From an uncultured Anaerolineae bacterium (GTDB lineage: Bacteria > Chloroflexota > Anaerolineae > J036 > Brachytrichaceae): a stretch of DNA of 64,000 bases. The notes below the pieces were generated by a model. That model saw only the letters and a list, made by a program, of their open reading frames with translations. It ran no database searches and was not told where the DNA came from. The stretch spans positions 52,079 to 116,078 of the forward strand of contig CALBEF010000013.1 of NCBI GenBank assembly GCA_937927775.1. The letters are read 5' to 3'. Shown piece by piece: positions 2,722 through 64,000 of this stretch. The first letter of the stretch is position 1, and each line of letters opens with the position of its first letter. The position numbers were made by a program, and so were the translations under genes.

Positions 2722-2795
2722 GATTGATGATTGACGATTGACGATTGACGATTGGAGCAAGCGACCTTTCAATCGTCAATTCAACAATCGACAAT
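2722..2795. repeat. Inverted pair of ATTGACG-family heptamer arrays (nuoH-nuoJ spacer)
   Basis: GATTGATGATTGACGATTGACGATTGACGATTGG (2722..2755) faces CAATCGTCAATTCAACAATCGACAAT (2770..2795). The two can pair as a long imperfect hairpin. Confidence 0.85.
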
Positions 2796-2797
2796 TT

Positions 2798-4081
2798 CTA
2801 CCTGGCCGGGGCGCCTCCGGCAAAGCCCGACACGGCGGCGCGGTTCGCTTCGCGCCGGCTTTCGATTTCCGCTTCTTCGGCCAGGCGCAGCACACGCGCC
2901 CGCCGGGCCACAATGGCCAGGCCGGACAGCAGGATCGCCACGTTAGCCACAAACAGGATGGCGGCCTGCGTCTCCGGCGTCACCAGAATGCCGCCGTTGG
3001 CCGCCTGAAGGCCGGGGCTGGTGACGAACAGCTTGGCCAGAATCATCACCGCAATGATATTGACGATCGACATTGGCACCAGCACTTTCCAGTTCAGCGA
3101 CATCAGTTGATCGACGCGCACGCGCGGCAGCGTGCCGCGCAGCCACATGAAGACGAAGAAGACCCCCGCCGTCTTGAGCGCCAGCCAGAGATAAGGCGGC
3201 AGAATCGGCCCGGCATAGCCGCCCAGGAACAGCGTGGCGAACACAATGGACACCGCCAGCGTGTTGACGTATTCGCCCAGCATGAACAGGGCGAATTTCA
3301 TGCCGCTGTATTCGACGTGGAAGCCGGCCACAATCTCCGACTCGGCTTCGAGCAGGTCAAAGGGCGAGCGGCCGGTCTCGGCTACGCCGGCGATAAAGAA
3401 CGCCAGCGCAGACAGGGGGAGATAGAGAATGAAGGGGATGCCGGGGTTGCCGTCGGCGAGTGTCTGGCGCTGCACGATATCGGCCAGCCCCATCGAGCCG
3501 GCCAGCAGGATCACCGGAATGACGTTGAGCAGCATGGGCACTTCATAACCCACCAACTGGGCCACGGTGCGAAAAGCGCCCAGCAGCGAATACTTGTTGT
3601 TGCTGCCCCACCCGGCCATCAGGATGGCAACCGTGCTGGCCGAGCCGACCGCGATGACGAAGAACACGCCGATATTGAGATTTGTGCCCACCACACCTGG
3701 CGCAAGCGGGAACACCGCGAAGGTCACGAGGGCAAACGTGGCGATGATGAGGGGAGCGGCGTTGTACACCCAGCGGTCGGCGCTGGCCGGCGTAGTGTCC
3801 TCTTTGGTGAACATCTTGATGCCATCGGCGATCGGTTGCAAGAGTCCAAACGGGCCAGCTTGATTAGGCCCCACCCGGTTCTGGATGCGCGCCACCACCT
3901 TGCGCTCGGCCCAGGTCATGCCCATGAAAACCAGAGCTACTATTGTGCACAACACCAGCGCACCCAGTCCCATCGTAATCAGATCGGCGCCCAGGCCAGG
4001 GCCTAATATGCCCTCAACCAGACCCGCCACACCATCACTGACGATCTTCAGCAGATTGTTGACCGTATCAATCACCGACAT
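2798..4081 (-). CDS. nuoH: NADH-quinone oxidoreductase subunit H (with C-terminal extension)
   Basis: WAERKVVARIQNRVGPNQAGPFGLLQPIADGIKMF and GWGSNNKYSLLGAFRTVAQLVGYEVP are NuoH/ND1 hallmarks. 427 aa. Confidence 0.95.
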   Translation of the reverse strand: MSVIDTVNNLLKIVSDGVAGLVEGILGPGLGADLITMGLGALVLCTIVALVFMGMTWAERKVVARIQNRVGPNQAGPFGLLQPIADGIKMFTKEDTTPASADRWVYNAAPLIIATFALVTFAVFPLAPGVVGTNLNIGVFFVIAVGSASTVAILMAGWGSNNKYSLLGAFRTVAQLVGYEVPMLLNVIPVILLAGSMGLADIVQRQTLADGNPGIPFILYLPLSALAFFIAGVAETGRSPFDLLEAESEIVAGFHVEYSGMKFALFMLGEYVNTLAVSIVFATLFLGGYAGPILPPYLWLALKTAGVFFVFMWLRGTLPRVRVDQLMSLNWKVLVPMSIVNIIAVMILAKLFVTSPGLQAANGGILVTPETQAAILFVANVAILLSGLAIVARRARVLRLAEEAEIESRREANRAAVSGFAGGAPAR

Positions 4082-7696: not shown

Positions 7697-8142
7697 GGCA
7701 TTCTCCCTGTCTAGACACCTGGCGTCCATTGGTATCACAGAATCGCCCCCCGTCAACCGCGCAGCAATTCCAAATCCGAGTTCTTCAGCCGGAAGTTGCG
7801 CGGCCTGATGAAAGGCGATGAGAGCAATAGTCAGATGCAATCGCCGGCACGTCCGGTAGACCCCGTTGGCTCCACGCGGACTGCCAAGTCCGCGTTGTGG
7901 ATCGACCTGTGCCGCCGGATTTGGCAATCCGGCGGGAGCCGCGCGAGCACAGTGATGCGCCGGATGCGCCGCTGCGATCCAATGGCGGCCAGCACGACAA
8001 AGCAGGCGTGGCTCCGCTGTCATGTATTGCCTGTCGATTCGGCCTCCACAGCCGGCGGCACCCCGGAGGAGTAGTTTGCTGCCAGACGGCGGAATCGACT
8101 CACAGTTCCAGATTTGGAATTGCTGTCAGCCACGCCACCGTC

Positions 8143-8170
8143 TTGACAAATCGCTGCTGGTCGATACACT
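8143..8170 (+). promoter_or_regulatory. Candidate promoter for the SPFH / NAD-kinase-like pair
   Basis: TTGACA (8143..8148), 16 nt, TACACT (8165..8170), about 100 nt upstream of the SPFH start, which has a GAGGAG Shine-Dalgarno. Confidence 0.4.
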
Positions 8171-8267
8171 TAGCGTCAAACATACACTAATTAGACCGGA
8201 CGCGCGGAACGACGTCAGCGAGACGGCAATCCGGCGCAGCCATTGCCATGAGGAGTTTGCAAAGGAC

Positions 8268-49656: not shown

Positions 49657-52600
49657 ATGCCGACTGCCAATAGTTCCCTCCAACAGGCGCTCGCCCGACA
49701 CGTTTCCGGCGAAGTGCGCTTTGACGACGCGATGCGCGTGCTCTACAGCACTGACGCCAGCAATTATCAGGTGTGGCCGCAGGGCGTGGTGTTGCCCAGG
49801 ACTGCCGACGATGTCATTGCGGCCGTCAACCTATGCGCCGAACATGGCGCGCCGATCATCCCGCGCGGCGGGGGCAGCGGGCTGTGCGGCCAGGCCATCG
49901 GCCCCGGCGTCATCCTCGATCTCTCCAAATACATGAATCAGGCGCTGGAGGTGGATGCGGCAGGCCGGCGCGCGCATGTTCAGCCCGGCATGGTGCTGCA
50001 ACAGTTGAACAAGCAACTCGCGCCCATGAAGTTGCAGTTCGGCCCCGATCCGGCCAGCGGCGAGCGAGCGGTCATCGGCGGCATCATCGGCACAAACGCC
50101 ACCGGCGCGCACTCCATCCGCCACGGCATGACTGCCGACCATGTGATTGCCATGCGCTGCGTGCTGGCCGATGGCACGCTGGTCGAGTTTGGCCCGCGCG
50201 AGAACGGCCCACAGGGCAAACTCGAACAGGCCATCGCCGACATCGTGCGCCGCCATGAGGCCGTTATCCGCCGCGATTTTCCGCAGGTGTGGCGCCGGGC
50301 CAGCGGCTACAACGTGGACTTTATCGCTGAAATGCTGGCCTGGGATCCGACCCATCCAGAGGCCGCGCTGCTCGACGCCAGCCGCAACCGGCAGTCGCTG
50401 AACTACCAGTCGCATCTCGACATGATCAGCCGGTTCAACCTGTCGCCGCTGATTGTGGGATCAGAGGGCACGCTGGCCGTGGTGCTGGACGCCACGCTGA
50501 AGCTGATGCCGAAGCCGGCGCGCACCGGCCTGGTGGTGTGCGCGTTCAACTCGCTGTCCGATGCGATGGACGCTACGCCGGCCATGTTGACCAGCGATCC
50601 CTCCGCGCTGGAGCTGATGGATGGCTTGATGGCGCGCCTGGCGCGCGGCCTGCCGGAGCAGGCGCGCAAGATGACCTGGCTGAGCGGCGAGCCGGACGCC
50701 GTGTTGATCGTGGAGTTCGACGGCGAAACAGAAAATGAAGTGAAGGCCGGCTTCGAGCGGCTGAAGCGCGTGCTGGCGCAGGAGCGCATCCCCTGCTCGG
50801 TCGCCGAGTTGATCGACCCGCAGGCGCAGGCCGACGTGTGGGCCGTGCGCAAGATCGGGCTGGGCATTCTGCTGAGCATCCGCAGCGACCACAAGCCGAT
50901 TTCGGTGATCGAAGATGTGGCGGTGCCGGTGGCGCGGCTGGGCGAATATGTGCGCCGGATGCGCGAGGTGTTCGCCCGCCATAAAACGGATGGCGCGTTC
51001 TACGCCCACGCCAGCGCCGGCGTGCTGCATGTGCGTCCGCTGGTCAACCTCAAGACGCTGGAAGGGCTGCGCGCCATGGAGGACATCGGCCTGAGCGCGC
51101 TGGCGCTGTGCCGCGAGATGGGCGGCGCGCTCAGCGGCGAGCACGGCGACGGCTACGAGCGCACGCGCTGGAACGAGGCGCTGTACGGCAAAGCGGTGTA
51201 TCAGGCGTTTTGCGAGATCAAGGACGCCTTCGACCCGCGCGGTCTGTTGAATCCCGGCAAGAAAGTGCGCGGCGAAGCAATGGAAGACTTCATGCGCATC
51301 GGGCCATGGCTGAAGATGAAGCCGTATGCAAGCGTGTTCACCTATCAGCAGGACGGCTCGTTTGCCGGCCTGGTGGAGCAGTGCAACGGCAACGGCATCT
51401 GTCGCAAATTAGACGGCGGCGTGATGTGCCCGTCGTACCGCGCCACGCTCGATGAAACCCACAGCACGCGCGGGCGGGCCAACCTGCTGCGCCATTTCAT
51501 CACCGATCGCGCGACGTGGAAACGAAACGACCGCCAGCCGGCAGAAAAGGCCGGCGCTCAATCGTCAATCGCTCAATCGTCAATCGCTCAATCGTCAATC
51601 GTCAATCCTTCTGACGTTCCCGTTATTTCGATGGACGACGTGAAATCCGCGCTGTCGTTGTGTCTGTCCTGCAAAGCCTGCCACACCGAATGCCCGTCCA
51701 GCGTGGACATGTCGAAGCTCAAGAGCGACTTTCTGGAGCACTACTACGCCGAGCGCGGCAAGCCGTTGCGCGCGTGGATGTTCGGCCACTTTGCCAATCT
51801 CAGCGCGCTGGCCGCGCCGTTTGCGCCGCTGGTCAACCGGCTGTTTGCGTTGCCGCCGGCCAAGTGGGCGATGCGCCGTATCGGGATCACCGATCAGCGT
51901 CCGTTCCCCCATTTCGCCTCGCAGACTTTCAAGGCGTGGTGGCGGCGTCAGGAGACAGGAGACAGGAGTCAGGAGTCAGACGAGTCGCCAATCCCCAATC
52001 CCCAATCCAAAATCAAAAATCCAAAATCGGTGGTGTTGTTTGCCGACACATTCGCCAACTACAACCACCCGCATGTGGCGCAGCGGGCGGTGGCATTGCT
52101 GGAGGCAGCCGGCTATTGCGTGATTGTGCCGGACTGCAAGTGCTGCGGGCGCACGCTGGTGTCGCAGGGCCAGCCGGGCGAGGTTGTGCCGCTCGCCAGA
52201 CACAACATCAGGACGCTGGCGCCGTTGGCGAAGCAGGGCCTGCCGATTCTGGGTCTGGAGCCGAGCTGCATCGCCATGTTCAAGGATGACTATCTGGACA
52301 TGCTGCCCGGCGATGACACTACAGCCGTGGCCGACGCCTTCATGGGCGTCGAGGACTTTCTGGCGCGCGAGGCAGCCGGCGGCGAGCGCGGCTTCAGCCT
52401 GAGCCGGCGCTTCCCGAACAACACCGATGTGCTGGTTCACGGCCACTGCCACCAGAAGGCCGGCTGGGGCACGCAGGGCATGAAGCAGGCCATGACAATG
52501 GCCGGCTATCGCGTGAAAGAGGTCGATTCGACGTGCTGCGGCATGGCCGGCGCGTTCGGCTATGAAGCCGAGCATTTTGAGGTGTCGCGCAAGGTCGGCG

Positions 52601-52777: not shown

Positions 52778-53014
52778 ATGCCTACCGTCCTCAGAACTGG
52801 TCCGTATCGATTCTTTTTCTACGCAGTGGATCGCGATGAGCCGCCACATGGGCATGTGGAACGCGAGGATAATAAGGCCAAGTTCTGGCTGAATCCTGTC
52901 CGACTTCAATCCAGCGGTGGATTTGGTCGCGCAGAGATCAATCGAATCCAGCAGCTTGTGGAAGAAAACCGGGATGCGCTGTTGCGAGGTTGGGATGAGT
53001 ATTTTGTTGACTGA
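52778..53014 (+). CDS. DUF4160 family small protein
   Basis: MPTVLRTGPYRFFFYAVDRDEPPHGHVEREDNKAKFWLNPV is the DUF4160 signature. Confidence 0.75.
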   Translation: MPTVLRTGPYRFFFYAVDRDEPPHGHVEREDNKAKFWLNPVRLQSSGGFGRAEINRIQQLVEENRDALLRGWDEYFVD

Positions 53015-53300
53015 GATTCCTGCGGTCAAGGCTCAGAATGTCAATGTCACGGATGATGCTCTGATTGTGGACCTGTCCGACGGACGCACCCTCTCAGTGC
53101 CGCTGGCATGGTATCCCCGATTGTGGCATGGCACGCCGGAGGAACGCAACAACTGGCGCCTGATCGGAAGCGGTGAGGGCATTCACTGGCCCGACTTGGA
53201 TGAAGATATCAGCGTCGAGGGTCTCATTCTTGGCAAGCCGTCTGGCGAAAGCCAGCGTTCGTTTAAGCGCTGGCTGAGCCAGAGGCGCGAATCGTTATAG
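52995..53300 (+). CDS. DUF2442 family small protein
   Basis: VTDDALIVDLSDGRTLSVPLAWYPRL...W.LIGSGEGIHWPDLDEDISVEGLI is the DUF2442 signature. Overlaps the DUF4160 gene by 20 nt. Confidence 0.75.
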   Translation: MSILLTEIPAVKAQNVNVTDDALIVDLSDGRTLSVPLAWYPRLWHGTPEERNNWRLIGSGEGIHWPDLDEDISVEGLILGKPSGESQRSFKRWLSQRRESL

Positions 53301-53311
53301 CGTGTTCGTCG

Positions 53312-54124
53312 GTGAATACGTCGCTCATCACCAGCCGAAGCAACGCGCGTGTCAAACAGATGCGCGCGCTGCGCCAGCGCAAGGAGCGCGACAGCAGCGG
53401 TCTGTGTCTGATCGAGGGCGTCCGGCACGTGAGCGAGGCTGCTGCAGCCGGTATCGCGCTCGACGCGATCGCCTATGCCCCTGACCAGCTCGCCAGCCCC
53501 TTTGCGCTGGCGTTCATCCGGGAACAAGCCGCGCGCGGCGTGCCCTGTCTGGCGCTGAGCGCCGATGTGTTCGAGTCCGTCGCCGACAAGGACAGCCCGC
53601 AGGGGATTGTGGCAATCGCCCGTCAGCGCAAGACTGAGCTGGCAGCGTTGCCGCCGGCCAGCGTCGATCTGGCCGTTGCGCTGGTCGCCCCGCAGGATCC
53701 CGGCAATGTCGGTTCGATTCTGCGCACGATGGACGCGGTCGGGGCCGGCGCGCTCATCCTCATCGACGCGGCAACCGATCCCTGGCACCCGACCTGCATC
53801 CGCGCCAGCATGGGCGCGTTGTTCTGGCATCCGGTGGCGACGGCGACGTTCGACGAGTTCGCAAGCTGGGCGCGCCGGCATGACTATCGCATCGTGGGCG
53901 CGTCGGCGCGCGGCGCAGTCGATTACCGCCAGGCCGACTACACGCGCCCGCTGATCTTGTTGATGGGCAGCGAACGCGAGGGACTATCCGACGCTCAGAA
54001 GGCCGTGTGTCATCAACTGGCGCGGCTGCCGATGCAGGGCCGGGTCAGCTCGCTCAATCTTTCTGTGGCAAGCGGCGTCCTGTTGTACGCGGCGCTGGCG
54101 CAATCTGACAGATCAGCACCTTGA
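53312..54124 (+). CDS. TrmH/SpoU family RNA 2'-O-methyltransferase
   Basis: SNARVKQMRALRQRKER (substrate-binding N-domain), LVAPQDPGNVGSILRTMDAVGA, LLMGSEREGLS, SLNLSVASGVLLY are SpoU motifs. GTG start. Confidence 0.85.
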   Translation: MNTSLITSRSNARVKQMRALRQRKERDSSGLCLIEGVRHVSEAAAAGIALDAIAYAPDQLASPFALAFIREQAARGVPCLALSADVFESVADKDSPQGIVAIARQRKTELAALPPASVDLAVALVAPQDPGNVGSILRTMDAVGAGALILIDAATDPWHPTCIRASMGALFWHPVATATFDEFASWARRHDYRIVGASARGAVDYRQADYTRPLILLMGSEREGLSDAQKAVCHQLARLPMQGRVSSLNLSVASGVLLYAALAQSDRSAP

Positions 54125-55070
54125 GGTAAGGCTGCGCGCCGGCGGCGACGGGAAAATCCGTCTCCGGTTCGTGGAGCGTCCGAACGATGCGCGCGCTGGT
54201 CTGTGCCAGGCCTTCATTGACCCGCGCGCGAAAAGCGCGTGGGCTGATCTGGTGGTGATTGGTGGCTGCCACGAGCCAGCCGCCCGGCTGGGTCGCTGCG
54301 GCCGCCAGCGCGACCAGGCCGGCCATATCACGCTCGACCGAAAAGCGCGACGCGCGCGTGGTGGAGAAGCTGGGCGGATCAAGAATGACGATGTCAAAGC
54401 GCTGCCCGCGCCGGGCGAAACGGCGCAGCCAGTCGAACACGTCGCCGGCCACAAAGTCGGTTTTCACCGCGTGCAGGCCGTTCAGCGTGTAGTTGCGCTC
54501 GCCCCAGTCGAGGATGCGCCGCGAGATATCGAGGTTGAGCGCGCGCGCCGCGCCTCCCACCAGCGCCGCGACGCCGAAGCCGCAGGTGTAGGCAAACGTG
54601 TTCAGCACGGTCTTGCCAGCCGACACCGATCGCACCCAGGCGCGCACCTCGCGCATGTCGGGGAACAGGCCGGGGTTCAACCCGTCGCCGGGGCGAATCT
54701 CGAAGCGCAGTCCGTTTTCAAGAGCCGTGATGCGCTCGACGGCCTGACCGAGAACCGGCGTCGCGGGAGCCAGATTGGCGCGCAGGTTTTCATCGAGCGC
54801 GTTGGCCTGCGCCGGCCGGTACTTCACGTAGACGCTTTGCGCGCCGGCGCGTTCGGCCAGCAGGCGCAAAACACGCATCGGCGGATCGACGACAGCGCCC
54901 GCGCTGTACACGTGCGCGACCAGCGCATCGCCGTAACGATCTACGGCCAGATCGGGGAAACCATCGGCGGCGCGGTTGATGAGCCGGTAGGCGGTGGTGT
55001 GGGGCGCGCTGTGCAAAGCAGCCCGGCGTTGCCAGGCCGCGTCGATCAGGCCGGCAAGGGGCGCTGGCAT
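54054..55070 (-). CDS. Class I SAM-dependent rRNA methyltransferase (RlmI/RlmK-like)
   Basis: DGFPDLAVDRYGDALVAHVYS, VLNTFAYTCGFGVAAL, FDIVILDPPSF. Start at MPAPLAGL (ATG 55070). The 3' end overlaps the convergent TrmH gene by 71 nt. Confidence 0.8.
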   Translation of the reverse strand: MPAPLAGLIDAAWQRRAALHSAPHTTAYRLINRAADGFPDLAVDRYGDALVAHVYSAGAVVDPPMRVLRLLAERAGAQSVYVKYRPAQANALDENLRANLAPATPVLGQAVERITALENGLRFEIRPGDGLNPGLFPDMREVRAWVRSVSAGKTVLNTFAYTCGFGVAALVGGAARALNLDISRRILDWGERNYTLNGLHAVKTDFVAGDVFDWLRRFARRGQRFDIVILDPPSFSTTRASRFSVERDMAGLVALAAAATQPGGWLVAATNHHQISPRAFRARVNEGLAQTSARIVRTLHEPETDFPVAAGAQPYLKVLICQIAPAPRTTGRRLPQKD

Positions 55071-55126
55071 GGCCGGAATTATAGCGATGGGACGAGTAGC
55101 GGACGCCTGGTTGGCAAAGGTGTTTG

Positions 55127-55135
55127 TGATAAAAT
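55127..55135 (+). promoter_or_regulatory. Candidate extended -10 promoter of the nuoA-G cluster
   Basis: TGaTAAAAT at 55127..55135, ~55 nt upstream of the GTG start of nuoA, which has GGAG 8 nt upstream. Confidence 0.4.
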
Positions 55136-55188
55136 GCGCAAACTTTTCAGGCCGGCAGGCCGGCCTGGCTCGATGATGGAGTAGCAAG

Positions 55189-55563
55189 GTGTCGGAGTAC
55201 TGGTCGATCCTGGTGCTGTTTGCGCTGTCCGTCGCGCTGGCGATCCTCATCGTGCTCATTTCCATCCTGTTCGGCCCCCGACGCCGCGCGAAGCTGGCTC
55301 GCAAGCAGGCGCCCTACGAAAGCGGCATGATGGCGATCGGCGCAGCGCAGCGCCGGCTGCCGGTGCGCTTTTATCTCATTGCCGTCTTGTTTATCCTGTT
55401 CGATGTCGAGGTGATCTTTCTGTTCTCGCTCGCCGCGGCATTGCGCGATCTGGGCTGGACAGGATTCTTTGCCCTGTTCGTATTTATAGTCGTGCTGCTC
55501 CTGGGCGACGTGTGGTTGTGGAAAAAGGGCGCCTTCGAGTGGGAGACGATGGACAAACAGTGA
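55189..55563 (+). CDS. nuoA: NADH-quinone oxidoreductase subunit A (copy 2)
   Basis: ...KQAPYESGMMAIGAAQRRLPVRFYLIAVLFILFDVEVIFLF... is the NuoA/ND3 motif. GTG start. Confidence 0.9.
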   Translation: MSEYWSILVLFALSVALAILIVLISILFGPRRRAKLARKQAPYESGMMAIGAAQRRLPVRFYLIAVLFILFDVEVIFLFSLAAALRDLGWTGFFALFVFIVVLLLGDVWLWKKGAFEWETMDKQ

Positions 55564-55571
55564 GTTCGCAG

Positions 55572-55717
55572 GGTTGGTAAGGTTCGTAAGGTTGGTAAGG
55601 TTCATAAGGTTCATCAGGTTGGCAAGGTTCATTCAAGACGGGACAAGAGCGCGACTTTGCGAACTCCGCAAACCTTACGAACCTTAAGAACTTTACAAAC
55701 CTTAAGAACCCTAAAGG
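55572..55717. repeat. Inverted pair of 9-mer arrays (GGTTSRTAA / TTASGAACC) in the nuoA-nuoB spacer
   Basis: Arm 1 at 55572..55634 is (GGTTGGTAA GGTTCGTAA GGTTGGTAA GGTTCATAA GGTTCATCA GGTTGGCAA GGTTCATTC). Arm 2 at 55668..55717 is (..AACCTTACG AACCTTAAG AACTTTACA AACCTTAAG AACCC..). The arms are reverse complements of the same unit. Confidence 0.85.
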
Positions 55718-55724
55718 CAAGAGC

Positions 55725-56207
55725 ATGGGTCTGGAACAGAAACTTGGCGATATGGGGGTGGTGACGACCTCGCTGGAAAAGGCAGTCGGCTGGGCGCGTT
55801 CAAACGCGATCTGGCCGATGTTGTTTGGCCTGGCGTGTTGCGCCATCGAGATGATGAGCACGCAGGCCAGCCGCTATGACCTGTCGCGCTTCGGCATGGA
55901 GTTGATGCGGGCCAGCCCGCGCCAGTCGGATTTGATGATTGTGGCCGGCCGCGTCAGCCGCAAGATGGCCCCGGTGCTGCGCACGCTGTACGACCAGATG
56001 CCGGATCCGAAATGGGTGATCGCCATGGGCGACTGCGCATCCTGCGGGGGCGTGTTCAATAACTACGCCATCGTGCAGGGCGTGGACGAGATCGTGCCCG
56101 TGGATGTGTACGTGGCCGGTTGCCCGCCCCGGCCCGAAACACTCATCGAAGGCATCCTCAAGCTCCAGGACAAGATCAAGCAGGAGCCGCTGAAGAAGTG
56201 GCAGTGA
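55725..56207 (+). CDS. nuoB: NADH-quinone oxidoreductase subunit B
   Basis: [15 protein letters not shown]...GDCASCGG...VAGCPPRPE are the N2 cluster ligands. Confidence 0.95.
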
Positions 56208-56208
56208 C

Positions 56209-56247
56209 GATTTTGGATTTTGGATTTTGGATTTGCGATTGCAGATT
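56209..56247. repeat. GGATTTT-family array (nuoB-nuoC spacer)
   Basis: GATTTTGGATTTTGGATTTTGGATTTGCGATTGCAGATT. This non-coding copy has GGATTTT on the transcribed sense strand, the opposite of all coding copies. Confidence 0.85.
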
Positions 56248-56260
56248 ACTGGTTGTCGAT

Positions 56261-56785
56261 ATGCCGGATACGCTGGTTTCACTTCCTGACTTTTCGGGCA
56301 TTGTGGCCGACCTGGGCGACGCAGTGATCGAAACTGTTGTGGCGCACGGCGAAGTGACGCTCGTCACCACGCGCGAGCGCCTGATCGAAGCGCTGACGTA
56401 TCTGCGCAATCAGGCGCGATTCGAGATGCTCGTTGACGAGACGTGCGTGGACTACTTCCCGCAGGAGCCGCGCTTCGCCATCGTCTACCAGCTCAACTCG
56501 CTCTCGCGGACGATGCGGCTGCGGGTCAAGGTCTTTTTGAGCGAGCACGACAAAACGATCCCCTCGGCGTGCGCCGTGTACCTCAGCGCCAACTGGCTGG
56601 AGCGCGAGATTTACGACCTGTTTGGCGTGACGTTCGAGGGGCATCCCGACCTGCGGCGCATTCTGATGCCGGCCGGCTACGAAGGACATCCCTTGCTGAA
56701 GGAAGTGCCGGTGACGGTCGAGGAAGTCGCGTTCTCGTTCAACCGCCGGCGCATTGACGCCGACAAACCCTATGCCCGCGAATAA
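56261..56785 (+). CDS. nuoC: NADH-quinone oxidoreductase subunit C
   Basis: ...DETCVDYFPQEPRFAIVYQLNSL...ANWLEREIYDLFGVTFEGHPDLRRIL. Start at MPDTLVSL (ATG 56261), downstream of the repeat array. Confidence 0.9.
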   Translation: MPDTLVSLPDFSGIVADLGDAVIETVVAHGEVTLVTTRERLIEALTYLRNQARFEMLVDETCVDYFPQEPRFAIVYQLNSLSRTMRLRVKVFLSEHDKTIPSACAVYLSANWLEREIYDLFGVTFEGHPDLRRILMPAGYEGHPLLKEVPVTVEEVAFSFNRRRIDADKPYARE

Positions 56786-58055
56786 CCCCACCCTTCACGA
56801 AGCGCCGGAGAGCGTGCTGACCGAATCCAACGCGCAGTTGGACATCACGCTCGAGCAACTGAAGAAGCTGGTCACCCCGCGCGCCTTCACCGGCGAGACA
56901 ATGCTGCTGAACATGGGGCCGCAGCACCCCTCCACGCACGGTGTGCTGCGCCTGCTGCTGGAGCTGGACGGCGAAACCATTGTCAGTTGCATCCCGGATA
57001 TCGGCTTTCTGCACACCGGCATCGAAAAGACGCACGAAGGCAAGACCTACAGCAAAGGCATTCCGCTCACCGACCGCATCGACTATCTCGCCCCGCTGTC
57101 GAACAACCTGGCCTACGTCGGCTGTGTTGAGAAGCTTCTCGATCTGGAAGTGCCGTTGCGCGCGCAGTACATTCGCGTCATTCTGCTCGAATTGACGCGC
57201 ATGAACAGCCATCTGGTGTGGCTGGGCACCCACGCGCTGGACATCGGCGCGATGAGCGTGTTCCTGTACTGCATGCGCGAGCGCGAGATGATCCTGGACG
57301 TGTACGAGCTGGTGGCCGGCGCGCGCATGATGACCAGCTATTTCCGCGTGGGCGGCCTGTGGCGCGACATTCCTCCGGGCTTCACCGATCTTGTCCAGAA
57401 AATCCTGGACGTTTTCCCGGAGCGCCTGCTGGAGTACGAGAAACTGCTGAAAGACAACCCGATGTGGAAAGAGCGCACCGTGGGCATCGGCGTCATCGGC
57501 AAAGAGGACGCCATCGCCTATGGCATGACCGGCCCTTCACTGCGCGGCAGCGGCGTCAACTACGACGTGCGCAAGGCGTATCCCTACAGCAGCTACGACC
57601 AGTTCGAGTTCAGCGTGCCGGTCGGCTCGAATGGCGACGTGTACGACCGCTATCGCTGCCGGATGGAAGAGTTCCATCAGAGCCTGAAGATCATTGAGCA
57701 GGCGATGAAGCGTCTGCCGGCCGGCCCGGTGATGGTGGACAACCGCAAGATCGCGCCGCCGCCCAAGCACGAGATCGCCTATTCGATGGAGTCGCTCATC
57801 CATCACTTCAAGCTGTGGACGGAAGGATTCTCCGTGCCCGAAGGCGAAGCCTACTTCGCCGTGGAGAGCGGCAAGGGCGAGTTTGGCTGTTACATTTCCG
57901 CGAACGGCGGGCCGAAGCCGCGCCGGGTGCATTTCCGCGCGCCGTCGCTGTGCAACCTGCAGGCGCTGCCCAGGATGAGCCGGGGCTGCCTGATCGCAGA
58001 CATGGTAGCCATCGTCGGCTCAATCGACATTGTGCTGGGCGAAGTGGATCGCTGA
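56754..58055 (+). CDS. nuoD: NADH-quinone oxidoreductase subunit D
   Basis: LNMGPQHPSTHGVLRLLLELDGE...HTGIEK...RLDYL-type motifs and C-terminal DIVLGEVDR. The start could be 56754 or 56772. Confidence 0.95.
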   Translation: MTPTNPMPANNPTLHEAPESVLTESNAQLDITLEQLKKLVTPRAFTGETMLLNMGPQHPSTHGVLRLLLELDGETIVSCIPDIGFLHTGIEKTHEGKTYSKGIPLTDRIDYLAPLSNNLAYVGCVEKLLDLEVPLRAQYIRVILLELTRMNSHLVWLGTHALDIGAMSVFLYCMREREMILDVYELVAGARMMTSYFRVGGLWRDIPPGFTDLVQKILDVFPERLLEYEKLLKDNPMWKERTVGIGVIGKEDAIAYGMTGPSLRGSGVNYDVRKAYPYSSYDQFEFSVPVGSNGDVYDRYRCRMEEFHQSLKIIEQAMKRLPAGPVMVDNRKIAPPPKHEIAYSMESLIHHFKLWTEGFSVPEGEAYFAVESGKGEFGCYISANGGPKPRRVHFRAPSLCNLQALPRMSRGCLIADMVAIVGSIDIVLGEVDR

Positions 58056-58101
58056 TATCCAGTGCGGGCTACTGGGCCGGGAGCGCGCCGTTTTGATTTC
58101 A

Positions 58102-59499
58102 ATGGACACTCAGCTACACGCCAAGGATGAACTGATTGATATTCCTTCGACTCCCTATTGCTACGCAATTGGCCTCGCTGATAGCATCGCAGAGATCGCG
58201 GCGCGGGTCCAAAGTCTACGCAGCACTGGCAGGCTCACGCCCGAAGTATTAGGCAACCTGAGACGGTATTTTAAGATCAAGAATATCTACAATTCGAATG
58301 CAATTGAGGGAAACACTCTCAATGTAGGAGAGACAGAACTTGTTGTGCAACAAGGATTGACCCTCACCGGCAAACCATTGCGCGACCAGGCAGAAGCAAG
58401 AAATCTCTCAGAAGCTTTGGACTTTTTGGAGGATATGGCAAGTTGCGCGGATAAGCCGATTACAGAAACAGATATAAGGCAGATGCACGCATTTGTGCTC
58501 AAAGGCATCAATGATGAAGAAGCTGGCCGCTACCGCCGCGTGACAGTGGTCATCTCCGGATCAAAATATGCGCCACCGCCTGCTGAGGATGTCGGTCCAC
58601 AAATGCTGCAATTCTGCAACTGGTTGGCTGCCGTAACCACGTCTCCAGCATTGGGGACGCAAGAGGGTCTGCTTTATGCGGCTGTTGCGCACACCTGGTT
58701 CGTAACGATCCATCCATTTATTGACGGGAATGGCCGTGTAGCCAGGCTGCTCATGAATCTTGTGCTGATGCGTTATGGGTATCCAATTGCCATCATCACT
58801 CGTGAAGATCGGCAGCGATATTACGATGCCCTTGAGGAATCACAGAGCAGCAATCTTTCTCTCTTTCTTGCTCTCGTCATCGATTGCCTCACTGAAAGTC
58901 TGGAGGAATATGAGTCTGCTGCTCAGGAGCAGAGAGAGAGACTGGAGTGGGCTCAGTCGCTTGCTGCAAGACTAGGGGCGAATGAACTCGCGACTTCAAA
59001 AAACAAATACGAGGTTTGGAGACGCGCGATGGAGTTGTTCGAGGCTCAGGTTGCGCAGTTGGCAGACATGGTGAATCAAAGTTTGCCACTCGTGCGAATT
59101 CAGGTGAGAGAGTTTGGGGAACTTGAGTTTGAAAAGTACTTGAGCCTAAGCAAGGGCCACTCAGCAAAAAAGACCTGGTTCTTTCGCATAGATTTTCGCG
59201 CGGCGCACAAAGTCGTGCGTTACTTGTTCTTCTTTGGCTCTGCTTCCCCGCTAATGAGCAAAGAGGGAGTGGATGTTACGGTCCTGGTGGCGCGAGAAGA
59301 ACCGCCAGGATCTTTCTACTATGAGCGGCTTGAGAACATCGATGCGCCCAACGTGCCTGACATCGTCGAAATTGGATACAAGATGCGAGATGAGACTTTT
59401 GTGGCTCGCAATCGCAATGGAAAGGTGGTTGCTCACAAAGTTGAGAGAATTGTCCAGACCTTCTTCGAGCAGGTTACAGCGAAGCACTTTGCAAGTTAG
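58102..59499 (+). CDS. Fic-family protein (class II-like, with N-terminal inhibitory S-x-x-x-E-G motif) and ~200-aa C-terminal extension
   Basis: Fic active site HPFIDGNGRVARLLMNL. Upstream NSNAIEGN matches the (S/T)xxxE(G/N) auto-inhibition motif. Clearly AT-richer than its neighbours. Sits between nuoD and nuoE on the same strand. Confidence 0.85.
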   Translation: MDTQLHAKDELIDIPSTPYCYAIGLADSIAEIAARVQSLRSTGRLTPEVLGNLRRYFKIKNIYNSNAIEGNTLNVGETELVVQQGLTLTGKPLRDQAEARNLSEALDFLEDMASCADKPITETDIRQMHAFVLKGINDEEAGRYRRVTVVISGSKYAPPPAEDVGPQMLQFCNWLAAVTTSPALGTQEGLLYAAVAHTWFVTIHPFIDGNGRVARLLMNLVLMRYGYPIAIITREDRQRYYDALEESQSSNLSLFLALVIDCLTESLEEYESAAQEQRERLEWAQSLAARLGANELATSKNKYEVWRRAMELFEAQVAQLADMVNQSLPLVRIQVREFGELEFEKYLSLSKGHSAKKTWFFRIDFRAAHKVVRYLFFFGSASPLMSKEGVDVTVLVAREEPPGSFYYERLENIDAPNVPDIVEIGYKMRDETFVARNRNGKVVAHKVERIVQTFFEQVTAKHFAS

Positions 59500-59529
59500 T
59501 GTGTGAACTGTGCGGAATTTGAGATCACT

Positions 59530-60009
59530 ATGCTCAAGGAAAAACGCGCACCCGACATCGAGAAGACGCTGGCGAAATATCCCAGCAGGCGCAGCGCCGT
59601 CATGCCGCTGCTGTATATCGCGCAGGAGGAATACGGCTACTGCGACGACAGCGCCATCCGCGAGGTGGCGGAGATTCTGGGGCTGGACCCGACCGAGGTC
59701 AAGTCCATCGTCGGCTTCTACACCATGTTCTACGAAGAGCCGACCGGCCAGTATGTGATCGACGTGTGCGATGACCTGCCCTGCGCGCTGCGCGGCGCGG
59801 ACGAATTTGTGAGCCACTGCGAGCGCAAACTGGGCGTCAAGGCCGGCCAGACCACCCCGGACGGCAAGTTCACCCTGCGCACCGTCATGTGCATCGCCGC
59901 CTGCGACCGCGCGCCGGTGGCCCAGGTGAACACCGAATATCGCTATGCGCTGACGCCGGAAAGTTTTGACCAGATGATCGACGAGTTAAGAGAACGAGAC
60001 GGCAAGTGA
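59530..60009 (+). CDS. nuoE: NADH-quinone oxidoreductase subunit E
   Basis: ...SAVMPLLYIAQEEYGY...DVCDDLPCALRGA...CIAACDRAP are the 2Fe-2S ligands. Start at MLKEKR (59530). Confidence 0.9.
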   Translation: MLKEKRAPDIEKTLAKYPSRRSAVMPLLYIAQEEYGYCDDSAIREVAEILGLDPTEVKSIVGFYTMFYEEPTGQYVIDVCDDLPCALRGADEFVSHCERKLGVKAGQTTPDGKFTLRTVMCIAACDRAPVAQVNTEYRYALTPESFDQMIDELRERDGK

Positions 60010-61274
60010 TGGACAAGCATGTATTGTTGCGCGATCTGGATGCGCCGAATATCCGCGAACTGGCGGTGTATGAGGCCAACGACGGCTACGCGGCCTGGCG
60101 CAGGGCGCTCACCGACATGAAGCCGGAAGAAGTGGTCGCGGTTGTCAAGGATTCCGGCCTGCGCGGGCGCGGCGGCGCCGGCTTCCCCGCCGGCCTGAAG
60201 TGGAGCTTCATCCCCAGAGACATCTTCCCCAAGTACGTCGTTGTCAACGGCGACGAAAGCGAAGCCGGCACGTTCAAGGATCATCAGCTTCTTGACAACA
60301 ATCCGCACCAGGTCATCGAAGGCACTGCCCTGTGCGCCTACGCCGTGCAGGCCAACACGGCTTATATCTACCTGCGCGGCGAATTCCTGGAGCCATCGCG
60401 GACATTGCAAAAGGCAATTGACGAAGCGTATGCCGCCGGCCTGCTGGGCAGGAACATTCTGGGCACGGGCTACAACCTGGACATTCACATTCACCTGGGA
60501 GCCGGCGCGTACATCTGCGGCGAGGAAACCGCGCTCCTGTCGTCGCTTGAAGGGCAACTGGGCCAGCCGCGCCTGCGCCCGCCCTTCCCCGCTGTGCAAG
60601 GGTTGTACGCCAAGCCAACCGTCATCAACAATGTGGAGACGCTGGCCAATGTGCCGCCCATCGTGTTGAACGGCGCGCAGTGGTACCGCCAGTTCGGCAC
60701 CGAGAAAAGCCCCGGCACCAAAATCTTCTGTGTCAGCGGGCGGGTGAACAAGCCGGGCAACTACGAGCTGCCGCTGGGCCAGCACACCATCCGCGAGTTG
60801 ATCGAGATGGCCGGCGGGACAATTAACAACCGTCCGGTCAAGGGTGTCTTGCCGGCGGGGTCGTCGGCGCCCATTCTGCCGGCCAGCGCGCTCGACACAA
60901 AGCTCGACTACGAAAGTATGCAGGCGGCCGGCTCGCTGCTCGGCTCGGCGTCCTTCGTCATCCTCGACGACACCGTGGACATCGTCTGGGCGGCGCGCAA
61001 GATGGTGCGCTTCTTCAAGCACGAGTCGTGCGGCAAATGCACGCCGTGCCGCGAAGGCACGCACTGGGCGATGAATCTGTACGACAAGATCATCAGCGGG
61101 AAAGGCTCCCTGCACGATGTGGACATGCTGGCCGAGGTCGCCAACAGCATGGCCGGCAAATGTTTCTGTCTGTTGGGCGAGTTTGCCACCAGCCCGATTC
61201 TGAGCACGCTCAAACACTTCCGGCCCGAATACGAGAAGTGGGTCTCGGAGTCCGGGGCGCTCGCCGGTGCGTAA
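60006..61274 (+). CDS. nuoF: NADH-quinone oxidoreductase subunit F
   Basis: GLRGRGGAGFPAGLKWSF (FMN site), YICGEETALLSSLEG, ESCGKCTPCREG (N3 cluster). Confidence 0.95.
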   Translation: MMDKHVLLRDLDAPNIRELAVYEANDGYAAWRRALTDMKPEEVVAVVKDSGLRGRGGAGFPAGLKWSFIPRDIFPKYVVVNGDESEAGTFKDHQLLDNNPHQVIEGTALCAYAVQANTAYIYLRGEFLEPSRTLQKAIDEAYAAGLLGRNILGTGYNLDIHIHLGAGAYICGEETALLSSLEGQLGQPRLRPPFPAVQGLYAKPTVINNVETLANVPPIVLNGAQWYRQFGTEKSPGTKIFCVSGRVNKPGNYELPLGQHTIRELIEMAGGTINNRPVKGVLPAGSSAPILPASALDTKLDYESMQAAGSLLGSASFVILDDTVDIVWAARKMVRFFKHESCGKCTPCREGTHWAMNLYDKIISGKGSLHDVDMLAEVANSMAGKCFCLLGEFATSPILSTLKHFRPEYEKWVSESGALAGA

Positions 61275-61449
61275 TCACGCGCACAACGTCTGAGCTCGTT
61301 TTTCGAGTGGCTGACAGTATTGCAATTCTGGCTTGAAGTTCTGAAAGGAGATCAATCGTATCCGGTTATAGCGGCAGATGATGATGGCTGCGCGCGACTA
61401 ATGAGGTGTGCGGATGTGGATGCGTTCCCATATCCGATACAGGAGACAC

Positions 61450-62169
61450 ATGAACTTGCGCAACCTCACGCTGTCGTTTGTGGCCGTTTTGCTTGCGTTG
61501 CCGTTGTCTCTGCCTGGCGCGAATGCTGCCGGCGGGCAGCCGCCGCCGATTGTGCCGTTGGGAGACATTAGCCCAACAGACGAGGGTAAGACCCTCACCG
61601 TTGAGGGCGCGGTGGTTGACACGGAGAATTTCTCGTCCGGCTTCAAGTTGCACATCAACGACGGGTCGGCGCAGGTGGTTGTGTTGATCTGGGCCAGCGA
61701 CTGGGATCACATCTACGACACGTATCACATCAACGTCGGCGCAGTGATCCGCGTGACCGGCCAGGTCGATGTCTATCGCGGGCAGATCGAGATTGTGCCC
61801 AAACGGGGCAGCGACGTGAAAGTGGTCAAATGGGCCAAACGCAACTGGCGCAAGTACGCGCTGGGCGGCATGAATGGCAACGACCACAATGCGGTGGTGT
61901 GGGTTGAAGGCTGGATTGCCGACATCACGCCGGCCCGCGATGGCGCGTATTTGCTGATCTACGATGACACCGGCGCGCAGAAGGTGCATCTGTACGATGT
62001 CGTGGCGCGGCGCATCCCGCGACAGGAGCAGTTGTGGGTCGGCCAGCGCGTGAGCATCGTCGGGCGTGTGCGCGCCAGGCGGCGCGTGGGCATTGAGATC
62101 GTGCCGGCCCTGCCGCACGATGTGTATGTCGCAGCCGGCGACGCCGACGCAGGAGGCGAGTCGAAATGA
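61450..62169 (+). CDS. Secreted protein with two OB-fold (tRNA_anti-like) repeats, paralog 1
   Basis: Signal peptide MNLRNLTLSFVAVLLALPLSLPGANA. OB-like units TVEGAVVDTENFSSGFKLHINDGSAQVVVLIW...IRVTGQVDVYRGQIEIVP and VWVEGWIADI...LLIYDDTGAQKVHLY...VSIVGRV. AGGAG Shine-Dalgarno upstream. Confidence 0.6.
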   Translation: MNLRNLTLSFVAVLLALPLSLPGANAAGGQPPPIVPLGDISPTDEGKTLTVEGAVVDTENFSSGFKLHINDGSAQVVVLIWASDWDHIYDTYHINVGAVIRVTGQVDVYRGQIEIVPKRGSDVKVVKWAKRNWRKYALGGMNGNDHNAVVWVEGWIADITPARDGAYLLIYDDTGAQKVHLYDVVARRIPRQEQLWVGQRVSIVGRVRARRRVGIEIVPALPHDVYVAAGDADAGGESK

Positions 62170-62846
62170 AGACGCGCTTCACTGCCATCGGGTTGAGCGC
62201 GCTGGCTGCGCTCGTGGGCGCGGGTGTTGTGTGGGCCGCCGGCCGTCCGGTGACGCCGATCGGGCAAATCAGCGCCAAAGATGTCGGCGCGGTGGTGGCG
62301 ATCAGTGGCGTGGTCAGCGACACGAGCAACTTTTCCGCCGGCTTCAAGTTCGTGATTTCGGACGCGACCGGCGCGCTGCCGGTGACGCTGTTCACGCGGC
62401 TGTATGATGAGATCGACGCGCCGGCCCGGCTGAATGTCGGCGCGCTGGTTACAATGACCGGCAAGCTGAATCAGTACAAGGGCGCGCTCGAACTGGCGCC
62501 GGCCAGACTGTCGGATGTGCAAATCGGCGCGATCATTGCGCCGCCGCCCGCGCTGACGCAAACAACGGGCCGAATCACGGCGCGGCAGGGCGAGCGGGTG
62601 GTCATTTCCGGCACGATCGCCAAAGTCGAGCCGTTCAAGTCCGGCGTGAAGTTGATCGTGGATGACGGCAGCGGCCCGCGCCGCGTGACCCTGTTCAACG
62701 CAGTGCGCGAGCGCATTCCGGCGGGAGACAAACTGACGCCGGGCGCGCGGGTGCGCGTGATCGGCAAAGTGAATGTGTATCGCAAGGTGGCCGAAATCGC
62801 CGTCGCCTTGCCATACGACGTGATGGTGTTGGAGAGCAAAAAGTAG
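62166..62846 (+). CDS. Secreted protein with two OB-fold (tRNA_anti-like) repeats, paralog 2
   Basis: Signal peptide MKTRFTAIGLSALAALVGAGVVWA. VAISGVVSDTSNFSAGFKFVISDATGALPVTLF...VTMTGKLNQYKGALELAP and VVISGTIAKVEPFKSGVKLIVDDGSGPRRVTLF...VRVIGKVNVYRKVAEI. ATGA overlap with paralog 1. Confidence 0.6.
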   Translation: MKTRFTAIGLSALAALVGAGVVWAAGRPVTPIGQISAKDVGAVVAISGVVSDTSNFSAGFKFVISDATGALPVTLFTRLYDEIDAPARLNVGALVTMTGKLNQYKGALELAPARLSDVQIGAIIAPPPALTQTTGRITARQGERVVISGTIAKVEPFKSGVKLIVDDGSGPRRVTLFNAVRERIPAGDKLTPGARVRVIGKVNVYRKVAEIAVALPYDVMVLESKK

Positions 62847-62851
62847 GTTCA

Positions 62852-64000
62852 ATGGCTGACCTGGTTAATCTCACAATCGATGGACGAGCGGTCGCCGTGC
62901 CGAAAGGCACGGTGATCGTTGATGCGGCCAAGAAGCTGGGCATTGATATTCCGGTGTTCTGTTATCACCCCAAGCTGAAGCCGGTCGGCATGTGCCGGAT
63001 GTGCCTGGTCGAAGTCGGCACGCCCAGGGTTGACCCGGCCACAAAGCAGGTGGTGAAGGACGACGCCGGCAATGTGGTCATCGCCTGGATGCCCAAGCTG
63101 CAAACCGCCTGCACCACAACGGTGAGCGAGGGCATGTCGGTGCGCACGAACACCCCGCAGGTGGCCGACGCGCGCGAGGACATTCTGGAGTTTCTGCTCA
63201 CCAGCCACCCGCTTGACTGTCCTGTCTGCGACAAGGGCGGCGAGTGCCCGTTGCAAAACCTCACCATGGGCTACGGGCCGGGCATGAGCCGGTTCGATTA
63301 CGAGGCCAAGCAGCGCAACGACAAGCATGTGCCGCTGGGCGACCTGATCTTCCTCGACCGCGAGCGGTGCATCCAGTGCGGACGTTGTGTGCGATTTCAG
63401 GACGATGTGGCCGGCGACCCCGTGCTTCAGTTTCACGAGCGCGGCCGGCACATGGAGATCGTCACGTTCAGCGACCCGCCGTTCGATTCGTATTTCAGCG
63501 GCAACACCACCGACATCTGCCCGGTCGGGGCGCTGACCACGGCCGACTTCCGCTTCAAGGCCCGGCCCTGGGAGCTGGCCAGCAGCCAGAGCGTGTGCCT
63601 GCACTGCCCGGTCGGCTGCAACATCACGCTCAACACGCGCCTGGAGACGCGCACGGGCGGCTACGAGATCAAGCGCGTCATGCCGCGCCAGAACGAGCAG
63701 GTCAACGAAATCTGGATGTGCGACAAGGGCCGTTTTGTCCACCATTTCACGCGCGCCGCAGACCGCCTGAAGATCCCCCTGGTTCGGGACGCCAGCGGCC
63801 AACTGGTCGAGACAAGCTGGGAAGAGGCGTTGACGCGCGTCGCCGGCAAGCTGGGCGCGGGCGCAGCAGTGGCCGGCGTGATCGGCGACCGCATCCCCAA
63901 CGAAGACGCTTTCCTGTTTGCGCAGCTATTCCGTGACACACTGGGACGCGCTGATCGTCGGCAGGCCGGCGTGTTCGTCTCGCCGCGCGTGCCGGCTGCC
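62852..64000 (+). CDS. nuoG: NADH-quinone oxidoreductase subunit G (N-terminal 383 codons; runs off the right edge)
   Basis: MADLVNLTIDGRAVAVPKGTVIVDAAKKLGIDIPVFCYHPKLKPVGMCRMCLVEV..., SHPLDCPVCDKGGECPLQ, CIQCGRCVRF. It has no stop inside the window, so it is absent from the ORF track. Confidence 0.93.
   Translation, partial: MADLVNLTIDGRAVAVPKGTVIVDAAKKLGIDIPVFCYHPKLKPVGMCRMCLVEVGTPRVDPATKQVVKDDAGNVVIAWMPKLQTACTTTVSEGMSVRTNTPQVADAREDILEFLLTSHPLDCPVCDKGGECPLQNLTMGYGPGMSRFDYEAKQRNDKHVPLGDLIFLDRERCIQCGRCVRFQDDVAGDPVLQFHERGRHMEIVTFSDPPFDSYFSGNTTDICPVGALTTADFRFKARPWELASSQSVCLHCPVGCNITLNTRLETRTGGYEIKRVMPRQNEQVNEIWMCDKGRFVHHFTRAADRLKIPLVRDASGQLVETSWEEALTRVAGKLGAGAAVAGVIGDRIPNEDAFLFAQLFRDTLGRADRRQAGVFVSPRVPAA

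Follow-up and report, generated by a model that had tools for sequence, protein, structure and literature searches.

Fic proteins of class II carry their inhibitory helix in the same chain as the catalytic core and N-terminal to it (Engel et al. 2012 classification; PMC3667792). The inhibitory glutamate of FICD and EfFic doubles as the catalytic residue of de-AMPylation (10.1101/323253; PMC6826200). SoFic, which works as an AMPylating toxin, has been validated as a Fic protein that provides defence on its own (10.1101/2022.05.11.491447; PMC12249575), and SoFic of Shewanella oneidensis, a class II enzyme, is reported to target EF-Tu (bioRxiv 10.64898/2026.07.09.737422). Here, a Fic gene is described that lies between nuoD and nuoE of the complex I (nuo) operon in a 64,000-nucleotide (nt) stretch of DNA, hereafter the window, from an uncultured Anaerolineae bacterium (assembly GCA_937927775.1, contig CALBEF010000013.1, positions 52,079 to 116,078 of the forward strand). 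The gene is carried on a foreign segment of ~1.43 kb that was inserted recently into the nuoD-nuoE spacer, and its product appears to be a catalytically competent, FICD-like protein of class II arrangement with a conserved C-terminal domain of its own.

An earlier note on this DNA had placed the end of nuoD at 58055 and the start of nuoE at 59530, with a co-oriented Fic protein of 465 amino acids (aa) in the gap. Pfam-supported gene calls bear out these limits, and the Fic open reading frame (ORF) runs from 58102 to 59499 on the forward strand (Pfam Fic; E value, 7e-20), 46 nt from nuoD and 30 nt from nuoE. The features of the insert and of the two genes that enclose it are listed below, in which GC is the guanine-plus-cytosine fraction, GC3 the same fraction at third codon positions, and structural features come from an AlphaFold2 (AF2) model with its predicted local distance difference test (pLDDT) values.

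56754-58055, + strand: nuoD (complex I 49-kDa subunit), upstream of the insert; Pfam PF00346 Complex1_49kDa, 6e-117; GC3 0.85.
58056-58074, + strand: left-hand remainder of the original nuoD-nuoE spacer, still aligning with that of related loci L001-L004.
58075-59509, + strand: inserted foreign segment, ~1.43 kb, ends good to ~10 nt; GC 0.50.
58102-59499, + strand: Fic ORF, 465 aa from ATG; Pfam Fic.
58294-58311, + strand: putative auto-inhibitory motif S65-N-A-I-E69-G70, which fits (S/T)xxxE(G/N).
58711-58749, + strand: Fic active-site loop H204-PFIDGNGRVAR-L216, read straight from the sequence.
58858-59082, + strand: predicted single long helix, residues 253-327 (AF2 model m544e59bc47d7, pLDDT 81-97).
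59092-59490, + strand: family-specific C-terminal alpha/beta domain, residues 331-463 (AF2 pLDDT >90).
59510-59529, + strand: right remnant of the ancestral spacer, just 5' of the nuoE ATG; weak alignment to the relatives' spacer.
59530-60009, + strand: nuoE, downstream of the insert; Pfam PF01257 2Fe-2S_thioredx, 1.6e-51; GC3 0.84.

The composition of the Fic gene departs from that of its surroundings. The earlier note had put the contrast at 35-45% GC against 65-72%; its direction stands but its sizes do not, as the values are 0.503 for the gene, 0.60-0.63 for the flanking nuo genes and ~0.64 for the window mean. The 1.4-kb stretch of Fic is the GC minimum of the 64-kb window. Codon usage deviates as well, with a GC3 of 0.54 versus 0.80-0.85 in every neighbor and a score of 0.365 versus 0.61-0.76 on a codon adaptation index (CAI)-like measure trained on the neighbors. 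Among ~49 ORFs in the window with the host frame signature, only Fic is an outlier in GC3, the rest falling between 0.68 and 0.85. To examine synteny, 80 related loci were recovered, 77 of which had both nuoD and nuoE. Fic was found at the nuoD-nuoE junction in none of these 77, so the gene is not present there across a broad clade, and the sole other copy was on an identical public contig (L081). NuoD assigns the host to Thermoflexales/Ca. Roseilinea (Chloroflexota, Anaerolineae). The host nuoD product is 94-96% identical, over aligned residues, to those of Thermoflexales/Ca. Roseilinea genomes, and the four closest relatives in this range have a nuoD-nuoE spacer of 51-66 nt without Fic. Because its codon usage is unameliorated and it is absent from all 77 loci, including these four, the gene was acquired recently, as the earlier note had proposed, and the event was almost certainly a horizontal insertion.

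At both ends of the insert the ancestral spacer can still be recognized. Homology to the relatives' spacer stops after ~58074 and resumes at ~59510, with ~20 nt on each side still homologous (for the left remnant, e.g., TGATATCCAGTGCGGGCTAC versus TGATACCCAATACGCAATAC in the alignment to L001-L004), and ~25 nt of ancestral spacer were replaced. The insert contributes 27 nt of its own noncoding DNA 5' of the gene and ~10 nt 3' of it. The source is evidently a metagenome-assembled genome, in which GC changes abruptly at the insert, as would be expected had a mis-assembly joined Fic to the nuo genes. The probability of such a chimera is nevertheless negligible: in addition to the spacer remnants on both sides, a 2947-nt contig (depth 14) from sequencing run X1 (Logan) covers the insert from end to end together with both junctions, and run X2, which belongs to a different study and carries a soil instead of a marine label, had one contig over the left junction (57805-58214) and another over the right (59397-59683). 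The X2 contigs differ from the window at 12 (left) and 2 (right) positions.

Across the Fic ORF, the window strain and the X2 strain show four synonymous and two nonsynonymous listed differences and no indels. Divergence, calculated from short low-depth contigs, was ~8 differences in 886 nt (~0.9%) for Fic compared with ~24 in 986 nt (~2.5%) for nuoD/nuoE (Fisher p ~0.01), a weak indication from sequence comparison that the insert may be younger than the strain split or may have spread between strains by recombination. A gene with very poor codon adaptation and no outstanding ribosome-binding or promoter signals, confined to one lineage, might also be an inert passenger heading to decay, with polar drag on the expression of downstream nuoE-N as its main effect. 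This is improbable given that two strains from different studies retain an intact ORF and differ in it mostly at synonymous sites, that every catalytic residue is kept, and that GGGAG (58079-58083) lies 9 nt before an alternative TTG start at 58093. Initiation at this TTG would yield 468 aa, and the Fic gene of L081 was called from it. An exact-sequence look-up with the 465-aa product returned no match, and the collection holds the 468-aa version, from one 2.9-kb contig only.

The boundaries of the insert revealed no terminal inverted repeats, direct repeats or target-site duplication, only short matches at chance level. A GTGCGG shared near both ends was considered as a target-site duplication and rejected, since similarity to the ancestral spacer explains it better. 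Only one ORF was identified in the insert, with no transposase or integrase, and the 3' noncoding sequence of ~10-30 nt is too short for an attC. A transposon, insertion sequence or integron cassette was rejected on these grounds (no boundary repeats, no room for attC, no transposase or integrase). As no transposon, integron or integrase signature was identified, a gene-sized fragment probably entered by illegitimate or microhomology-mediated recombination. Promoter and terminator scans of 54800-63000 gave counts equal to the shuffled expectation and none in the junctions; a terminator-like hairpin within the Fic ORF (59197-59219) was indistinguishable from chance, and no Rfam family was found over 54000-64000. 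Transcription of the Fic gene would rely on read-through from the nuo promoter.

The Fic core is well supported, with PF02661 matched at 72.1 bits against a cut-off of 24 (E value, 7e-20). Residues 204-216 form the active site HPFIDGNGRVARL, in which the canonical HxFx(D/E)GNGRxxR loop is intact, and residues 64-71 form NSNAIEGN, within which S65-N-A-I-E69-G70 sits 135 residues before H204. Both motifs are invariant in 50 homologues, and the H, P, F, D, G, N, G, R and R of the loop are fixed. The earlier note had read the first as an active-site motif and the second as the (S/T)xxxE(G/N) element of a class II protein, and the alignments agree on both counts, the window SNAIEGN aligning with TVAIEGN of FICD. 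The closest solved relatives by sequence are human FICD and Caenorhabditis elegans FIC-1 (E value, 1.8e-35; residues 59-276; 30-31% identity), and the AF2 model (pLDDT 85.8) matched the FICD fold in Foldseek with an E value of 9e-15 and a TMt of 0.60. From the intact HPFIDGNGRVARL site and the N-terminal SNAIEG motif, the protein therefore appears to be a catalytically competent, FICD-like Fic of class II arrangement, and it would be expected to AMPylate a target. The N-terminal 58 residues were modelled as a beta-hairpin and two helices. Residues 61-93 had pLDDT values below 50, and residues 61-74, which hold the inhibitory motif, were drawn as coil at this low confidence, so that a helical inhibitory element remains putative.

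Beyond the Fic core, AF2 predicted one 75-residue helix (253-327) followed by a compact alpha/beta domain (331-463). The helix may be a stalk, possibly a dimerization element. The ~190 C-terminal residues had no Pfam, NCBIfam or PDB sequence match, in line with the ~200-aa C-terminal region that could not be assigned in the earlier note, and PHROGs matches covered the Fic core and stalk only, leaving the C-terminal domain unmatched. Conservation of the domain equals that of the catalytic core, and 16 of its residues are invariant in a domain-only alignment (A4). Structure prediction and fold search, which had been suggested for this region, gave a confident alpha/beta domain with no solved counterpart: the isolated domain model (pLDDT 85) had no fold match in PDB (best E value, 0.3) or in the BFVD viral library (best E value, 0.19). 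A helix-grip/START-like fold was not accepted, as the matches were faint (TM ≤0.31). When a profile of the domain was compared with 1.84 billion representative proteins, 114 matches were obtained, nearly all of them Fic plus C-terminal-domain proteins of 445-470 aa or fragments thereof. One further match (P0159; 608 aa) has a sub-threshold NUDIX domain after the C-terminal domain (E value, 4.7e-4; 20.6 bits against a cut-off of 21.1). The stalk helix and C-terminal domain could together form a module for recognizing the target or an activating signal.

Among the exceptions are four clusters of longer proteins (P0212, P0233, P0240 and P0250; 1023-1064 aa), in which a divergent Hsp70-like domain (PF00012, 5e-16 to 3e-5) stands N-terminal to a class II Fic core and the C-terminal domain. 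Their Fic plus C-terminal-domain module shares 32% identity with residues 62-387 of the window protein. Since the substrate of FICD is the Hsp70 BiP, the fusions provide a lead, and only a lead, to a chaperone target. The window protein might then be a FICD-like proteostasis regulator, gained as a beneficial acquisition and not as a toxin or defence gene, that reversibly AMPylates an Hsp70-type chaperone (DnaK or an Hsp70-like ATPase); the closeness to human and C. elegans FICD in sequence and fold and the de-AMPylating role of the inhibitory glutamate in FICD and EfFic (10.1101/323253; PMC6826200) fit with such a role. This alternative is unlikely. The fusions are distant and serve as a hint, their Hsp70-like domain being divergent and the N-terminal 600 residues having no PDB sequence match; the TPR substrate-docking domain of FICD is absent from the window protein; a patchy, mobile and GC-deviant distribution is unlike that of a housekeeping regulator; and a literature search found no bacterial Fic-DnaK pair.

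The protein was compared with described Fic systems. FICD/HYPE of humans and FIC-1 of C. elegans, AMPylases/de-AMPylases of BiP, share the (S/T)xxxEG and HPFxDGNGRxxR motifs with it. In contrast to FICD, it is bacterial, mobile and patchily distributed, and has no transmembrane anchor or TPR, and no Pfam domain besides Fic, but carries the 75-residue helix and the orphan alpha/beta domain. BT_2513 (3cuc), Dde_2494 (4rgl) and a Clostridioides difficile Fic (4x2e) share the core and, putatively, the N-terminal inhibitory helix (E values, 2e-26 to 3e-12); they end soon after the core, whereas the window protein continues for ~190 conserved residues. The class I pairs FicT/FicA and VbhT/VbhA follow the common logic of an AMPylating toxin restrained by an inhibitory glutamate, but in the window protein the motif is in the same polypeptide, there is no partner gene, and the NCBIfam VbhT match is negligible. 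A class I Fic toxin-antitoxin module was rejected, as only 46 nt 5' and 30 nt 3' are available around the ORF. The likeness to SoFic lies in the lone class II Fic gene and in the toxin-antitoxin and defence islets in which members of the window family are found. The PADLOC SoFic model PDLC03963 matched residues 29-342 (E value, 3.9e-39), and candidate-defence models of PDC-S04 matched down to 1e-28. The PDB SoFic sequence alignment covers residues 155-224 only, and full-model Foldseek alignments to SoFic chains were loose (aln_cols 313-391; root mean square deviation, 7.9-19.5). Unlike in the AS1 arrangement (PMC12249575), a small downstream antitoxin would have no room in the 30 nt between the Fic stop and nuoE. 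The window protein was rejected as a SoFic orthologue (31 bits against 550, and a different C-terminal domain).

The family to which the window protein belongs is widespread and mobile. A word-index search identified 4718 homologues; the best 120 were nearly all full length with 56-61% identity, and those named came from Acidobacteriota, Stellaceae, Alpha-, Beta- and Gammaproteobacteria, Dormibacteraeota and Ca. Thiosymbion. Near-equal distance to so many phyla indicates frequent transfer. In six of seven other loci, the family gene was 4-18 GC points below its flanks. Eleven other genomic contexts were inspected, in which the gene was always alone, without a conserved partner, and no conserved noncoding sequence was seen around family members. 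HipA/HTH, Phd and rve genes were found near some members of the family; OLD-like ATPase, PIN_4, MqsA-HTH and M78 peptidase genes, a ParE gene, and an integrase fragment with DUF4145, PemK and IS110/rve were found near others. Several copies lay 30-50 nt from co-oriented housekeeping genes, and tight co-oriented contexts of this kind included positions between Ser/Thr kinase genes, 30 nt before rpe-trpGDC, 50 nt after a transketolase gene and 100 nt after an amidohydrolase gene. None of the eleven contexts was near nuo, and none was respiratory. Of the two options raised in the earlier note, a selfish insertion is favored by these non-respiratory contexts, often with toxin-antitoxin, defence or mobile genes.

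The second option, a gene tied to the respiratory state, has no support beyond location. A regulator that modifies a complex I subunit or senses the NADH/ATP state might be expected to sit, as Fic does, co-oriented between nuoD and nuoE without a promoter of its own, and position is all that speaks for it. It is very improbable, as none of the eleven other contexts is consistently near nuo or respiratory complexes, complex I of the nearest relatives operates without Fic, and the codon usage shows no long residence in the genome. In addition, a VapBC pair, an aspartyl protease gene and an OB-fold pair also occupy nuo junctions in this clade. The first of these lies in L020 (CAZVQE010000184; Anaerolineae; NuoD 77% identical), where a VapBC-like pair is co-oriented in the nuoD-nuoE junction (2749-3475) and consists of a MazE/AbrB-type antitoxin gene (2794-3081) and a PIN toxin gene (3062-3472). 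The 731-nt segment has a GC of 0.476 versus 0.53 for the locus. It resembles the window insert in junction, orientation, low GC and toxin-type cargo, and differs in that the proteins are unrelated and the module has two genes; the nuoD-nuoE slot has received toxin-type cargo in two independent insertions. The second, which occupies the nuoE-nuoF junction of at least seven loci in a sister clade of Thermoflexales, is an ORF for a retropepsin-like aspartyl protease (117-125 aa). A domain scan of the ORF covered L007 only (7859-8212; 117 aa; PF13650, 1.4e-9); matching ORFs of 117-125 aa were called in L009, L010, L011, L018, L022 and L032, and L013 and L019 had a shorter ORF. The nuoE-nuoF gaps in these eight loci are ~400-470 nt. 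Since its GC is host-like (~0.58-0.63), the protease ORF looks like an older, vertically inherited insertion.

The remaining genes of the operon in the window were as follows.

55189-55563, + strand: nuoA, strong Pfam match.
55725-56207, + strand: nuoB, strong Pfam match.
About 56258-56785, + strand: nuoC, strong Pfam match.
60006-61274, + strand: nuoF, strong Pfam match.
61408-62169 and 62166-62846, + strand: two OB-fold genes, Pfam.
62852 onward, + strand: nuoG, start only, strong Pfam match.

The OB-fold pair (61408-62846), between nuoF and nuoG, has a tRNA_anti-codon domain, and the second gene shows a sub-threshold DUF4131 and an N-terminal hydrophobic segment. Copies follow nuoF in L001-L004 at 71-93% identity and in distant Thermoflexales loci at 30-44%. 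In Paracoccus denitrificans and Rhodobacter capsulatus, the nqo/nuo clusters also contain co-oriented unidentified reading frames between nuo genes; those extra ORFs are conserved within their lineages, whereas the window Fic is foreign, lineage specific and of toxin type. The nuo gene order had been regarded as so conserved that a foreign gene within it was unexpected. The foreign gene is there, but it is less surprising than had been supposed, since the operon is porous in this clade and other junctions also hold extra genes. The more notable point is the presence of two unrelated toxin-type modules at one junction.

Taken together, it is fairly probable that the window carries a recent, promoterless, single-gene insert encoding an auto-inhibited, FICD-like AMPylase of toxin/defence type that is transcribed by read-through and is unrelated to complex I in function. 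A promoterless segment of ~1.43 kb from a donor of lower GC entered the 51-66-nt nuoD-nuoE spacer in one Thermoflexales/Ca. Roseilinea-like lineage. Read-through from the nuo promoter would transcribe Fic, and nuoE, nuoF and the later genes would in turn be transcribed through it. E69 in the N-terminal SxxxEG motif would keep the enzyme off by default, so that, like lone mobile SoFic-type proteins, it could lie dormant and be freed from auto-inhibition by a trigger, for example phage infection or stress. The released enzyme would then AMPylate an essential host protein and cause growth arrest, possibly reversible. The gene would lie in the complex I operon by accident, having landed in a spacer that tolerates inserts, is strongly expressed and does not readily permit deletion.

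Several results weigh against this interpretation. FICD, the best match by structure, is a regulatory enzyme and not a toxin; the NCBIfam SoFic equivalog model NF046030 scored 31.1 bits against a cut-off of 550, and the C-terminal domain of SoFic is lacking. About half of the family contexts are plain housekeeping neighborhoods without defence genes, and no activity or phenotype is known for any family member with the Fic plus C-terminal-domain architecture. Searches of phage and plasmid collections returned matches to the Fic core alone (≤78% coverage, <44% identity); a full-length relative was not among them, and thus no transfer vehicle emerged. No RNA-sequencing run was listed with the Fic gene, the sole RNA-type run (X4) holding a 183-nt piece of nuoE only. 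A toxin/defence role is suggested by the SoFic-like features and the contexts in which relatives are found, and a link to respiration is unsupported.

Some further observations were made in and near the operon. The nuoA-nuoB spacer (55564-55724) contains two 9-nt tandem-repeat arrays, a GGTTCRTAAG-like array at 55564-55632 and its reverse complement at 55671-55714, which form a long imperfect hairpin (RNA fold, −62.6 kcal/mol; z = −6.3 versus shuffles). A relative of these arrays is present in L002 and absent in L001 and L003. The hairpin might serve as a site of processing or attenuation in the operon, or else be a structural element derived from repeats. Directly 3' of the nuoB stop, the nuoB-nuoC spacer (56208-56240) has ~3.7 copies of a GATTTTG heptamer, with similar sequence in L001 and L002. 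Upstream of the operon, a large FAD/Fe-S oxidoreductase gene contains complementary CCAATCC/AATCCAA heptamer arrays at 51988-52028 as well as 7-nt and 15-nt arrays at 51555-51607. Between this gene and a SpoU methyltransferase gene lies a small DUF2442 gene (52917-53300; PF10387, 4e-24) with a local GC dip of 0.52-0.57 and a GC3 of 0.68, the lowest of the host-like ORFs; it may be an accessory gene.

The insert does not change the understanding of complex I. It represents a clean, datable case of a promoterless foreign gene that settled in an essential and conserved operon and left it unbroken. Nuo spacers of Thermoflexales/Anaerolineae have repeatedly been used by toxin-type genes, which bears on how selfish or defence genes secure their expression and resist deletion. 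The analysis also points to a widespread family, with thousands of members annotated only as "Fic family protein," that combines a FICD-like core with a conserved, uncharacterized C-terminal domain. It is a speculative proposal, and improbable as a whole, that these proteins form a mobile bacterial FICD-like branch (with the stalk helix and the orphan domain) that targets an Hsp70-type ATPase as a prokaryotic counterpart of FICD-BiP in a stress or defence module, and that nuo spacers serve as recurrent "safe harbours" for promoterless toxin-type cassettes. Since few targets are known for class II Fic enzymes of bacteria, the family would nonetheless offer a concrete and testable target hypothesis.

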